Positions 59,826-64,000 of a DNA stretch of 64,000 nt are shown here, in pieces (position 1 is the first letter of the stretch; every line of letters starts with the position of its first letter). The translations under genes were made by a program, and so were the position numbers. Location of the stretch: the NCBI RefSeq assembly GCF_003334405.1, contig NZ_QOWM01000001.1; one strand, 5' to 3'. The DNA is from Escherichia coli. GTDB taxonomy: Bacteria > Pseudomonadota > Gammaproteobacteria > Enterobacterales > Enterobacteriaceae. The notes below the pieces were generated by a model. It saw only the letters and a list, made by a program, of their open reading frames with translations. It was not told the DNA's origin and searched no databases.

Positions 59826-60389
59826 ATGAGTAAGTTTGTTAAAACAGCTATTGCTGCGGCAATGGTGATGGGCGCGTTCACCTCTACGGCAACAATCGCT
59901 GCGGGTAACAACGGTACTGCACGTTTTTACGGCACCATTGAAGACTCAGTGTGTTCTATCGTTCCGGACGATCACAAACTGGAAGTTGATATGGGTGATA
60001 TCGGTGCCGAAAAACTGAAAAATAACGGCACCACCACGCCGAAAAATTTCCAGATTCGCCTGCAAGATTGCGTATTTGATACTCAGGAAACAATGACCAC
60101 TACCTTTACTGGTACCGTTTCTTCTGCAAATAGCGGCAATTATTACACCATTTTCAATACCGATACCGGTGCGGCATTTAACAATGTTAGCCTGGCGATC
60201 GGTGACTCTCTGGGTACCTCTTACAAAAGCGGCATGGGTATTGACCAGAAAATCGTGAAAGATACTGCCACTAATAAAGGCAAAGCGAAGCAGACTCTGA
60301 ACTTTAAAGCCTGGCTGGTCGGCGCAGCTGATGCGCCAGATCTGGGTAATTTCGAAGCAAATACCACCTTCCAGATTACTTACCTGTAA
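59826..60389 (+). CDS. yfcV: Fimbrial major subunit (chaperone-usher pathway)
   Basis: 187 aa; signal peptide; pilin-like Cys pair; C-terminal ...FQITYL. Confidence 0.85.
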   Translation: MSKFVKTAIAAAMVMGAFTSTATIAAGNNGTARFYGTIEDSVCSIVPDDHKLEVDMGDIGAEKLKNNGTTTPKNFQIRLQDCVFDTQETMTTTFTGTVSSANSGNYYTIFNTDTGAAFNNVSLAIGDSLGTSYKSGMGIDQKIVKDTATNKGKAKQTLNFKAWLVGAADAPDLGNFEANTTFQITYL

Positions 60390-60470
60390 GGCATACCCCC
60401 ATAGCGACACTGCTATGGGGTATTTAAATGGATTTTGACCGAACAAGAATAAAAACGGATAAAAACGTGT

Positions 60471-63116
60471 ATGCCTGACCATTCTCTTTTTCGATTACGG
60501 ATTCTTCCGTGGTGCATTGCGCTGGCAATGTCAGGGAGTTATAGCAGTGTCTGGGCTGAAGACGACATTCAGTTTGATTCCCGTTTTCTGGAATTAAAAG
60601 GCGACACAAAAATTGATCTGAAGCGTTTTTCCAGCCAGGGGTATGTTGAGCCCGGAAAATACAATTTACAGGTTCAACTAAATAAACAGCCATTGGCGGA
60701 AGAGTACGATATTTACTGGTATGCTGGTGAAGATGACGTTAGCAAAAGCTATGCTTGTCTGACACCGGAACTGGTGGCGCAGTTTGGTTTAAAAGAAGAC
60801 GTGGCGAAAAATCTGCAATGGAGCCACGATGGTAAATGCCTGAAGCCCGGTCAACTGGAAGGCGTGGAAATTAAGGCTGATTTAAGCCAGTCCGCATTAG
60901 TCATTTCACTACCGCAGGCTTACCTCGAATATACCTGGCCCGACTGGGATCCACCTTCTCGTTGGGATGATGGCATCTCCGGGATCATTGCGGACTACAG
61001 CATCACTGCGCAAACACGACACGAAGAAAATGGCGGCGATGACAGTAACGAGATCAGCGGCAACGGGACGGTCGGGGTTAACCTGGGGCCATGGCGTATG
61101 CGCGCTGACTGGCAGACCAACTATCAACATACGCGCAGTAATGATGATGACGATGAATTTGGCGGCGATGACACACAAAAAAAATGGGAGTGGAGTCGCT
61201 ATTATGCCTGGCGGGCGTTACCGTCATTAAAAGCCAAACTGGCGCTGGGCGAAGATTACCTCAATTCCGATATTTTCGACGGTTTTAATTATGTTGGTGG
61301 CAGTGTCAGCACTGACGATCAAATGTTGCCTCCCAATCTGCGCGGCTACGCGCCAGACATTTCCGGCGTGGCACACACCACAGCAAAAGTGACCGTCAGC
61401 CAGATGGGGCGTGTGATTTACGAAACGCAGGTTCCGGCTGGACCGTTTCGTATTCAGGATCTTGGTGATTCCGTCTCCGGTACGTTGCATATTCGCATTG
61501 AAGAACAGAACGGCCAGGTGCAGGAATATGACATCAGCACCGCCTCGATGCCATACCTCACTCGCCCAGGCCAGGTTCGCTATAAGATCATGATGGGACG
61601 TCCGCAAGAGTGGGGCCACCATGTCGAGGGGGGATTTTTCTCTGGTGCTGAAGCCTCCTGGGGCATCGCTAACGGCTGGTCGTTATATGGCGGTGCGCTG
61701 GGTGATGAAAACTATCAGTCTGCGGCGCTGGGCGTCGGTCGCGATTTGTCTACCTTCGGCGCGGTCGCGTTTGATGTTACTCATTCGCATACCAAACTGG
61801 ATAAAGACACCGCTTATGGCAAAGGTTCGCTGGACGGTAACTCCTTCCGTGTGAGTTATTCCAAAGACTTTGACCAGCTCAACAGCCGCGTCACTTTCGC
61901 TGGATATCGCTTCTCGGAAGAGAACTTTATGACCATGAGCGAGTATCTGGATGCCAGTGACAGCGAAATGGTCCGTACGGGCAACGACAAAGAGATGTAC
62001 ACCGCCACTTATAACCAGAACTTCCGCGATGCGGGTGTTTCGGTTTATCTCAACTATACCCGCCATACCTACTGGGATCGTGAGGAGCAGACAAACTACA
62101 ACATCATGCTCTCCCACTATTTCAATATGGGCAGCATTCGTAATATGAGCGTTTCCCTGACTGGCTACCGCTACGAGTATGACAACCGGGCGGATAAGGG
62201 CATGTACATTTCGCTCAGTATGCCGTGGGGCGACAACAGTACCGTTAGCTATAACGGCAACTATGGCAGTGGGACGGACAGCAGCCAGGTCGGTTATTTT
62301 AGCCGTGTCGATGACGCGACTCACTATCAGTTGAACATCGGCACCAGTGACAAACACACCAGCGTTGATGGCTACTACAGCCATGATGGTTCGCTGGCGC
62401 AGGTTGACCTCAGTGCGAACTACCATGAAGGGCAATACACCTCTGCGGGCTTGTCGTTACAGGGCGGCGCAACGCTTACTACCCACGGCGGCGCACTTCA
62501 CCGTACCCAGAATATGGGCGGGACACGCCTGCTGATTGATGCCGATGGCGTTGCCGATGTTCCGGTGGAAGGTAACGGGGCTGCTGTTTATACCAATATG
62601 TTTGGTAAAGCCGTCGTTTCTGACGTTAACAATTATTATCGCAATCAGGCGTATATCGACCTCAACAAATTGCCGGAAAACGCCGAAGCAACCCAGTCGG
62701 TGGTGCAAGCCACGCTAACTGAAGGAGCCATTGGCTACCGCAAATTTGCCGTCATCAGTGGTCAAAAAGCGATGGCGGTGCTGCGTTTACAAGATGGCAG
62801 CCATCCACCGTTTGGCGCAGAAGTAAAAAATGATAACGAGCAGACAGTGGGCCTTGTCGATGATGACGGTAGTGTCTATCTGGCTGGGGTGAAACCTGGC
62901 GAACATATGAGTGTGTTCTGGAGTGGTGTTGCGCATTGCGATATCAACCTGCCGGACCCGCTGCCTGCCGATCTGTTTAACGGCTTGTTACTGCCATGCC
63001 AGCATAAAGGCAACGTCGCGCCGGTTGTTCCTGATGACATAAAGCCTGTCATTCAGGAGCAGACGCAACAGGTGACACCCACCGATCCCCCTGTTTCTGT
63101 TTCAGCTAACCAATAA
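60471..63116 (+). CDS. yfcU: Fimbrial usher protein, apparently full length
   Basis: 881 aa uninterrupted ORF with signal peptide and usher-sized beta-barrel protein. Confidence 0.88.
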   Translation: MPDHSLFRLRILPWCIALAMSGSYSSVWAEDDIQFDSRFLELKGDTKIDLKRFSSQGYVEPGKYNLQVQLNKQPLAEEYDIYWYAGEDDVSKSYACLTPELVAQFGLKEDVAKNLQWSHDGKCLKPGQLEGVEIKADLSQSALVISLPQAYLEYTWPDWDPPSRWDDGISGIIADYSITAQTRHEENGGDDSNEISGNGTVGVNLGPWRMRADWQTNYQHTRSNDDDDEFGGDDTQKKWEWSRYYAWRALPSLKAKLALGEDYLNSDIFDGFNYVGGSVSTDDQMLPPNLRGYAPDISGVAHTTAKVTVSQMGRVIYETQVPAGPFRIQDLGDSVSGTLHIRIEEQNGQVQEYDISTASMPYLTRPGQVRYKIMMGRPQEWGHHVEGGFFSGAEASWGIANGWSLYGGALGDENYQSAALGVGRDLSTFGAVAFDVTHSHTKLDKDTAYGKGSLDGNSFRVSYSKDFDQLNSRVTFAGYRFSEENFMTMSEYLDASDSEMVRTGNDKEMYTATYNQNFRDAGVSVYLNYTRHTYWDREEQTNYNIMLSHYFNMGSIRNMSVSLTGYRYEYDNRADKGMYISLSMPWGDNSTVSYNGNYGSGTDSSQVGYFSRVDDATHYQLNIGTSDKHTSVDGYYSHDGSLAQVDLSANYHEGQYTSAGLSLQGGATLTTHGGALHRTQNMGGTRLLIDADGVADVPVEGNGAAVYTNMFGKAVVSDVNNYYRNQAYIDLNKLPENAEATQSVVQATLTEGAIGYRKFAVISGQKAMAVLRLQDGSHPPFGAEVKNDNEQTVGLVDDDGSVYLAGVKPGEHMSVFWSGVAHCDINLPDPLPADLFNGLLLPCQHKGNVAPVVPDDIKPVIQEQTQQVTPTDPPVSVSANQ

Positions 63117-63135
63117 CGTGATTAAGGAATGATCC

Positions 63136-63888
63136 ATGTCTGATTTACTTTGCTCTGCCAAATTGGGTGCTATGACGCTGGCGTTACTGCTTAGCGCTAC
63201 CAGTTTGTCTGCCCTGGCGTCTGTAACGCCAGATCGTACCCGTTTGATATTTAATGAAAGCGACAAATCAATCAGCGTGACGCTGCGTAATAACGATCCG
63301 AAACTCCCTTATCTGGCTCAAAGCTGGATTGAAGATGAAAAGGGTAACAAGATCACCTCGCCGTTAACTGTGCTGCCGCCAGTGCAACGCATCGATTCAA
63401 TGATGAACGGGCAGGTAAAAGTGCAGGGAATGCCGGATATCAACAAATTGCCAGCCGATCGTGAAAGCATGTTCTACTTTAACGTGCGCGAGATCCCGCC
63501 AAAATCAAACAAACCCAATACCCTGCAAATCGCGCTGCAAACGCGTATCAAGTTGTTCTGGCGACCAAAGGCGCTGGAAAAGGTCAGTATGAAAAGTCCG
63601 TGGCAGCACAAGGTGACGCTCACCCGCAGCGGTCAGGCATTTACCGTCAATAACCCAACGCCGTACTACGTGATTATCAGCAACGCCAGTGCGCAGAAAA
63701 ACGGTAATCCAGCTGCAGGGTTCTCGCCTCTGGTCATTGAGCCGAAAACCACGGTACCGCTGAATGTGAAAATGGATAGCGTACCGGTGCTGACTTACGT
63801 CAACGACTTTGGCGCACGGATGCCGCTGTTCTTCCAGTGCAATGGCAACAGCTGCCAGGTGGATGAAGAGCAGAGCCGCAAAGGCTGA
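63136..63888 (+). CDS. yfcS: Periplasmic fimbrial chaperone (PapD-like)
   Basis: 250 aa; signal peptide; position after the usher. Confidence 0.86.
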   Translation: MSDLLCSAKLGAMTLALLLSATSLSALASVTPDRTRLIFNESDKSISVTLRNNDPKLPYLAQSWIEDEKGNKITSPLTVLPPVQRIDSMMNGQVKVQGMPDINKLPADRESMFYFNVREIPPKSNKPNTLQIALQTRIKLFWRPKALEKVSMKSPWQHKVTLTRSGQAFTVNNPTPYYVIISNASAQKNGNPAAGFSPLVIEPKTTVPLNVKMDSVPVLTYVNDFGARMPLFFQCNGNSCQVDEEQSRKG

Positions 63889-63911
63889 TGACGGGGGGAG
63901 TTATGAGTCAA

Positions 63912-64000
63912 AAGTTTGTAGTGGGCGCAGGGCTGCTGGTATGCAGTGTCTGTAGTTTATCTGCTATGGCTGGTAGTAAACCCGTGGATTTAATTCTGCG
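63912..64000 (+). CDS. yfcR: Start of next fimbrial subunit gene (truncated by window end)
   Basis: ATG followed by signal-peptide-like MSQKFVVGAGLLVCSVCSLSAMAGSKPVDLIL; runs off the window. Confidence 0.55.

Follow-up and report, generated by a model that had tools for sequence, protein, structure and literature searches.

Yfc Fimbriae and the Locus under Study

Fimbrial types of the chaperone–usher class in Escherichia coli have been defined by the phylogeny of the usher together with the chromosomal locus, and in the survey by Wurpel et al. (2013; PMC3559732) Yfc appears as a "core-associated" fimbria of the π clade that occupies one and the same locus in nearly every E. coli. PMC5216030 and PMC3032704 likewise place yfc in the π clade, and the operon is referred to as "yfcOPQRSTUV" in PMC8174762 and PMC3032704. 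Korea et al. (2010) is cited in PMC3559732 for the statement that yfc encodes "functional but cryptic" organelles, and in PMC6033998 for increased adherence to bladder cells; the usher YfcU has also served as a model protein in TAM assembly assays, according to PMC11014939. Here we describe the yfc genes present in a stretch of 64,000 nucleotides of E. coli DNA (RefSeq assembly GCF_003334405.1, contig NZ_QOWM01000001.1), the whole of which is called the window in the following. The interval from position 59826 to position 64000 contains the proximal half of the yfc operon at its usual chromosomal locus adjoining sixA, and its usher gene, yfcU, is uninterrupted. We consider it highly probable that the window carries an intact, wild-type usher gene within a known Pap-like (π-clade) yfc operon, that this represents the ancestral state, and that the laboratory strain K-12 departs from it through one derived nonsense mutation.

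A Single Nonsense Substitution in the K-12 yfcU Gene

An earlier note on this DNA had described yfcU as a single open reading frame of 881 amino acids and had stated that its K-12 counterpart is annotated as a disrupted pseudogene. The list of open reading frames bears out the former statement, and the latter agrees with the annotation of K-12 MG1655 (NC_000913.3), in which yfcU (b4661; 2452356–2455001) is flagged as a pseudogene and yfcV, yfcS, yfcR, yfcQ, yfcP, and yfcO are all annotated as ordinary coding sequences. The note had also proposed to locate the K-12 lesion by alignment, and a base-by-base comparison places it at codon 579. The yfcU genes of the window and of K-12 have the same length (2646 nucleotides) and are distinguished by one substitution, with no insertion or deletion. 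This sole difference is found at gene nucleotide 1737 (window position 62207), which is a C in the window and a G in K-12; hence, the tyrosine codon TAC of the window corresponds to the amber codon TAG in K-12. Position 62207 is at the same time the only base that differs from K-12 across the entire interval 59826–64000. The K-12 gene is therefore not intact after all, and the yfcU gene of the window contains neither a frameshift nor a premature stop codon.

The disruption of the K-12 gene is reflected in its annotation history. The annotation pipeline PGAP labels the K-12-type yfcU gene with "internal stop", and older K-12 annotations split it into yfcU and yfcT, a division that survives in the locus tags of DH10B given in PMC3256949 and in the operon name "yfcOPQRSTUV" mentioned above. 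Our literature search found no paper that explicitly describes the amber codon at position 579.

Tyr579 is located inside the Usher β-barrel domain, and its codon lies upstream of the remaining part of YfcU that matches the translocation-domain chains of PapC, which ends near residue 675, and of the part that matches the PapC C-terminal-domain chains (residues 758–844). Judged from this alignment, a 578-residue K-12 product would lack approximately the last 100 residues of the barrel and everything that aligns with the C-terminal domains of PapC. The amber mutation would thus take away the final barrel segment and both C-terminal domains, which, as established for PapC and FimD, are needed for fibre assembly. 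A single G-to-C change restores the reading frame of the K-12 usher, and unless codon 579 is repaired in this way, K-12 is a poor background for studies of Yfc fimbriae. In effect, the window contains a naturally occurring repaired version of the K-12 usher gene, with one differing base in the whole interval.

Distribution of the Two yfcU Alleles in E. coli

The two alleles were followed through a set of 5426 complete E. coli genomes, 5385 of which possess a yfcU homologue when coverage of at least 80% of the gene is taken as the criterion. A 99-mer centred on codon 579 was found as an exact match with TAC in 1316 genomes and with TAG in 364, and a 30-mer that is able to seed only if TAG is present matched 363 of the 5426 genomes. 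Sixty of these 363 genomes, picked at even spacing, are for the most part named K-12 laboratory strains; among them are MG1655, W3110, MC4100, EMG2, C600, HB101, XL1-Blue, NBRC 3301, a Keio strain, and O16:H48 isolates. Several more of the sixty bear strain names that tell nothing of their origin, but their chromosomes resemble that of K-12 in size. TP6-2, an amber carrier of ambiguous affiliation, possesses a K-12 backbone with the CPS-53 prophage and the long fadL allele (see below). The TAC allele is found in genomes that are otherwise indistinguishable from the window in this region: at least 30 match it at every one of the 4175 bases of the interval, including many phylogroup-A-like strains isolated from pigs, chickens, and humans, and further strains are nearly identical to the window over its last 25 kb.

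Six diverged yfcU alleles (from ATCC 11303, RM9131, O157:H7 Z1825, MRSN346595, FDAARGOS_536, and ZH063) were compared with that of the window. They range from 98% down to 77% in amino acid identity and from 879 to 882 residues in length; all six are uninterrupted and have a Tyr residue at the aligned position 579, as does PapC. The ratio of non-synonymous to synonymous substitutions (dN/dS) of the six alleles relative to the window allele is between 0.045 and 0.092, and such low values argue that the system is kept by selection in the species. Some genomes carry a yfcU gene interrupted by an insertion sequence (H101, H110, H139); loss of yfcU is thus sporadic, and an intact copy is the rule in E. 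coli.

Because of the distribution of the two alleles, the conservation of Tyr579, and the intactness of the diverged alleles, the amber codon is to be regarded as a derived mutation of the K-12 lineage that was already present in EMG2, and the window allele as the ancestral, species-typical, and selectively maintained state that is not peculiar to this strain. For this well-catalogued operon, an intact yfcU gene is the normal and already known condition; it is K-12 that is anomalous. The K-12 yfcU pseudogene results from a single nonsense single-nucleotide polymorphism (SNP), and wild relatives that differ from K-12 by about 0.02% over the part compared carry the intact gene. This result has little significance beyond bookkeeping and opens no new biological question.

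The yfcU alleles are extremely diverged within E. coli, with synonymous divergence (dS) of about 1.2–1.9, which is saturated, and yet they stay under strong purifying selection, at dN/dS values below 0.1. This divergence points to ancient allelic lineages or to recombinational replacement at the locus, and the high π values reported in PMC4850163 fit with it.

Organization of the yfc Operon

The features of the yfc region that are present in the window are as follows:

58660–59145, plus strand: sixA, from the list of open reading frames; follows fadI and fadJ, in this order
59146–59825, plus strand: sixA–yfcV spacer of 680 bp, AT-rich, presumed regulatory or promoter region
59826–60389, plus strand: yfcV, major fimbrial subunit; open reading frame of 187 amino acids, identical in nucleotide sequence to K-12 b2339
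60393–60423, plus strand: hairpin 3' of the yfcV stop codon, recognized from an inverted repeat and its fold
60471–63116, plus strand: yfcU, outer-membrane usher; open reading frame of 881 amino acids without internal stop
62205–62207, plus strand: codon 579 of yfcU, TAC (Tyr); TAG (amber) in K-12
63136–63888, plus strand: yfcS, PapD-like periplasmic chaperone; open reading frame of 250 amino acids, identical to K-12 b2336
63888–64000, plus strand: beginning of yfcR, which encodes a minor fimbrial subunit and is truncated at the window end; corresponds to K-12 b2335

The start of yfcR at position 63888 overlaps the stop codon of yfcS, and 37 codons (113 nucleotides) of yfcR are inside the window; their translation, MTGGVMSQKFVVGAGLLVCSVCSLSAMAGSKPVDLIL, has a signal-peptide-like N-terminus. 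The earlier note had counted four genes in the operon (yfcV-yfcU-yfcS-yfcR), and this number needs to be corrected. In strain ECCHD184, which is 100% identical to the window over 59826–64000, the usher and chaperone genes are followed by three more pilin genes (yfcR, yfcQ, yfcP) and by yfcO, a fimbrial adhesin according to RefSeq, all of which are annotated as intact. The full gene order in strains identical over the interval is accordingly yfcV-U-S-R-Q-P-O, an operon of seven genes. The locus by which Wurpel et al. (2013) define the Yfc type lies between sixA and smrB/prmB; its sixA side is inside the window, and its smrB side, present in both ECCHD184 and K-12, lies beyond the window end. 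Antisense open reading frames within yfcU and yfcV (of 178 and 250 amino acids, and others) were rejected as genes; they are wholly contained in well-supported coding sequences and are unannotated in the genomes examined.

The Usher, Chaperone, and Major Subunit Proteins

YfcU is predicted to be a full-length usher with a complete domain architecture, encoded by a frame that is free of stops and frameshifts. In Pfam, its domains are PapC_N (residues 34–179), Usher (198–759; E = 4.6e-192), and PapC_C (770–826), and the protein scores 1886.8 bits against the NCBIfam usher subfamily PRK15284 (cut-off 972), with residues 1–881 covered. The PapC chain 7lhg_C aligns with residues 34–844 (E = 3.4e-216), including both the N- and the C-terminal Cys pairs; the translocation-domain chains of PapC (2vqi, 3fip) cover residues 158–675, and its C-terminal-domain chains (3l48, 2kt6) residues 758–844. 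Among the solved ushers, YfcU scores 723 bits against PapC and 265 bits against FimD, and, by these scores rather than by a formal tree, it would group with the π (Pap-like) clade. In the strains that are 100% identical over the interval, the yfcU coding sequence corresponds to WP_001112832.1, the RefSeq "fimbrial usher protein YfcU". Residues 845–881 (63003–63113) form a Pro/Gln-rich C-terminal tail of about 37 residues, HKGNVAPVVPDDIKPVIQEQTQQVTPTDPPVSVSANQ, which extends beyond both the PapC alignment and the PapC_C domain.

YfcS matches PapD (7lhg_D) with E = 9.3e-59. Its segments DRTR and RIKLFWRP align with DRTR and KIKLFYRP of PapD, and the C-terminal Cys-x4-Cys pair is aligned as well. 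In PapD, Arg8 and Lys112 anchor the C-terminus of the subunit; we take the DRTR segment of YfcS to correspond to the Arg8 site and RIKLFWRP to the Lys112 site. By this alignment, YfcS is a PapD-like periplasmic chaperone in which the subunit-binding Arg and Lys residues are conserved.

The best NCBIfam matches of YfcV are the fimbrial major subunits StfA and SteA (StfA model, E = 3.5e-29), and by sequence the protein also fits the pilin fold of FimA and FimF (best chains at E = 1.6e-07). It possesses an N-terminal G-x-V/A-x-F-x-G motif, a Cys pair (C43, C82), and a penultimate Tyr residue, and it agrees with a typical pilin, which is marked by a signal peptide, an N-terminal extension, a Cys pair, and a C-terminal β-strand with penultimate Tyr. 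For the identities of the components of this system, we consider the sequence matches to the solved structures of PapC and PapD to be decisive.

A pathway for the operation of the Yfc system can be envisioned by following the established chaperone–usher pathway rather than data obtained here. YfcV and the minor subunits would be exported by Sec and then be captured and stabilized by YfcS through donor-strand complementation. The chaperone would hand the subunits over to the N-terminal domain of YfcU; their polymerization would proceed by donor-strand exchange, the fibre would be extruded through the β-barrel of the usher, and the C-terminal domains of YfcU would hold the growing fibre, with YfcO presumably at its tip. 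On sequence grounds, it is plausible that the operon represented in the window is competent in fimbria assembly.

Putative Regulatory Signals

The G+C fraction of the spacer is between 0.31 and 0.40, as compared with about 0.50–0.55 in the flanking genes. The K-12 difference closest to that at position 62207 is found in the sixA–yfcV spacer, where SNP 59536 is an A in the window and a G in K-12; the window base is not shared by strain Z1323CEC0017 either. The AT-rich upstream region, together with the label "cryptic" in the literature, leads us to propose that the operon is probably not transcribed in laboratory culture; H-NS may be involved in such silencing.

Directly 3' of the yfcV stop codon, an imperfect inverted repeat (ATACCCCCATAGC / GCTATGGGGTAT) forms a hairpin. 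The fold of the segment 60385–60475 has a calculated energy of -29 kcal/mol (z = -4.79), and none of 200 shuffled sequences was as stable. Attenuator or stabilizer hairpins located after the gene for the major subunit and before the usher gene are known from the pap and fim operons. By analogy, the hairpin between yfcV and yfcU is likely an intra-operon attenuator or an mRNA stabilizer that sets the ratio of subunit to usher. The yfcS gene is preceded by the Shine–Dalgarno sequence AAGGA.

Alternative Explanations

A number of observations weigh against the view that the operon of the window is functional and that of K-12 is not. The genes yfcQ, yfcP, and yfcO lie beyond the end of the window, and the source strain could carry a lesion there. 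In the upstream region, four matches to the promoter consensus were found when 5.1 were expected from shuffled sequences; these chance-level matches include 59414–59442 and 59584–59613 on the plus strand, and no promoter was assigned. No obvious Shine–Dalgarno sequence was recognized when the sequence upstream of yfcU was read. Furthermore, papers that cite Korea et al. (2010), namely PMC3559732 and PMC6033998, call the yfc operon of K-12 "functional" when its expression is forced, despite the amber codon; the amber codon may not be fully inactivating, or the K-12 phenotypes may be independent of the usher. It is conceivable from this side that the usher reading frame of the window is open and the operon as a whole is nonetheless non-functional, either through a distal lesion in yfcQ, yfcP, or yfcO or through permanent silencing. 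The window stops 113 nucleotides into yfcR, insertion sequences have entered yfcU in H101, H110, and H139, yfcR–yfcO are missing in some uropathogenic E. coli strains (as stated in PMC4850163), and the operon is described as cryptic in PMC3559732. However, all seven genes are annotated as intact in a strain that is 100% identical to the window over 59826–64000, and the low dN/dS values across alleles argue for selective maintenance, so that we judge a non-functional operon to be very unlikely.

A different proposal is that the window and K-12 do not differ in function, because the amber codon is leaky (through read-through or supE suppression) or because a substitute usher is available. The papers that cite Korea et al. 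(2010) credit it with functional organelles and with increased adherence to bladder cells under constitutive expression of the K-12 yfc operon (PMC3559732 and PMC6033998), and Wurpel et al. state in PMC3559732 that yfc was the only cluster without a disrupted copy in any of their genomes, among which are MG1655, DH10B, and BW2952. The latter scoring is inconsistent with the finding that these three strains carry the yfcU amber codon. The stop codon is positioned inside the β-barrel and upstream of the regions that correspond to the PapC C-terminal domains, which the 578-residue product should lack; both PGAP and the curators of the MG1655 genome flag a pseudogene with an internal stop, and the yfc results of Korea et al. 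(2010) are available second-hand, through the citing papers. An absence of any functional difference is, in our view, improbable. Since adhesion phenotypes have been reported for K-12, the functional contrast between the window and K-12 is nevertheless less clean than the earlier note had implied when it suggested that this strain, with its open usher frame, may be able to assemble fimbriae if the operon is derepressed. Should the phenotypes of forced expression in K-12 be real, they arose in the presence of the amber codon, which would imply appreciable read-through of UAG, assembly through a heterologous usher, or an usher-independent effect of overproduced subunits, and the true activity and receptor of Yfc fimbriae may have been underestimated in all work based on K-12; we regard this as an unlikely scenario. 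The suspicion that the C at position 62207 arose from faulty sequencing or assembly, and that the strain truly carries the amber codon, could be nourished by the mere 12 SNPs that separate the window from K-12 over about 57 kb and by collapsed tandem tRNA copies, which could hint at a short-read assembly. It is rejected on population evidence, and its probability is negligible: 1316 independent complete genomes contain the 99-mer with TAC without mismatch, no fewer than 30 agree with the window throughout the 4175 bases, and the absence of the K-12 markers (CPS-53, IS186C, and the long fadL allele) speaks against a K-12 strain. We thus favour an intact, ancestral usher gene in the window and a derived nonsense mutation in K-12.

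Relation of the Window to K-12

The comparison with K-12 covers the window from position 7175 to position 64000 (about 57 kb), over which the two sequences are 99.8–100% identical and differ by a total of 12 SNPs (about 0.02%). The possibility that the window derives from K-12 and has undergone a reversion at codon 579 is rejected in view of the lack of CPS-53, the lack of IS186C, and a different fadL allele; the strain is wild and closely related to K-12, and the amber codon never arose in it.

At argW, the gene for tRNA-Arg CCU (49112–49187), the cryptic prophage CPS-53 (KpLE1) of K-12 is absent and nothing takes its place; in other near-identical strains, the site is occupied by different islands, one of them with gapS6b. 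Around 11435–11446, the window is without IS186C, which in K-12 sits between nupC and pdeA. The fadL gene (52850–54166, minus strand) encodes 438 residues as compared with 446 in K-12; an in-frame deletion of 24 bp (site 53565–53594) has eliminated the residues SPAGQTQQ, which are part of an imperfect tandem repeat, VAGQIMQSPAGQTQQ. A 30-mer spanning this junction had no match among the 5426 complete E. coli genomes, and another 438-residue fadL allele (Z1323CEC0017; WP_001300984.1) lacks the adjoining eight residues IMQSPAGQ. FadL is the receptor of phage T2, and the deletion may represent loop variation under phage selection.

Differences are also found among the tRNA genes. A single tRNA-Ala(GGC) gene is present at 8944–9019, in comparison with the alaX-alaW tandem of K-12, and the segment 6090–6244 contains a single tRNA-Val(UAC) gene and a tRNA-Lys gene, the K-12 counterpart of which we take to be the valU-valX-valY-lysV cluster. 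A match to RtT RNA is located at 5934–6059 (46.7 bits; gathering score 45). The lower number of tRNA copies reflects either a real difference in copy number or tandem repeats that collapsed during assembly.

Comparison with Known Fimbrial Systems

The genes in the window correspond to the Yfc fimbriae (yfcOPQRSUV) in their locus beside sixA and in their gene order. From the Yfc system of K-12 they differ only at codon 579, and the usher of the window is full length, as it is in most non-K-12 E. coli.

With the P pili (Pap) of uropathogenic E. coli, the Yfc system shares the order of major subunit, usher, and chaperone genes; YfcU matches the three-domain Pfam architecture and the Cys pairs of PapC, and YfcS matches PapD. 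In contrast to the Pap system, neither PapI/PapB-type regulators nor a PapH-type terminator gene between the Yfc subunit and usher genes were seen, and the tail of YfcU, about 37 residues long, reaches past the end of PapC. By sequence, YfcV is nearer to FimA/StfA-type pilins than to PapA, and the adhesin YfcO (DUF2544) is, by annotation, unrelated to PapG.

The Stf and Ste fimbriae of Salmonella (StfA/StfD/StfE-G and SteA/SteC-F) provide the best NCBIfam equivalog matches of YfcV, YfcS, YfcR, YfcQ, and YfcP, and the last yfc gene in strain ZH063 is annotated as "StfH/YfcO family fimbrial adhesin". All Yfc scores, however, stay below the equivalog cut-offs (e.g., 345 versus 447 for StfD), which makes the Yfc and the Salmonella Stf/Ste systems homologous, but not the same fimbria.

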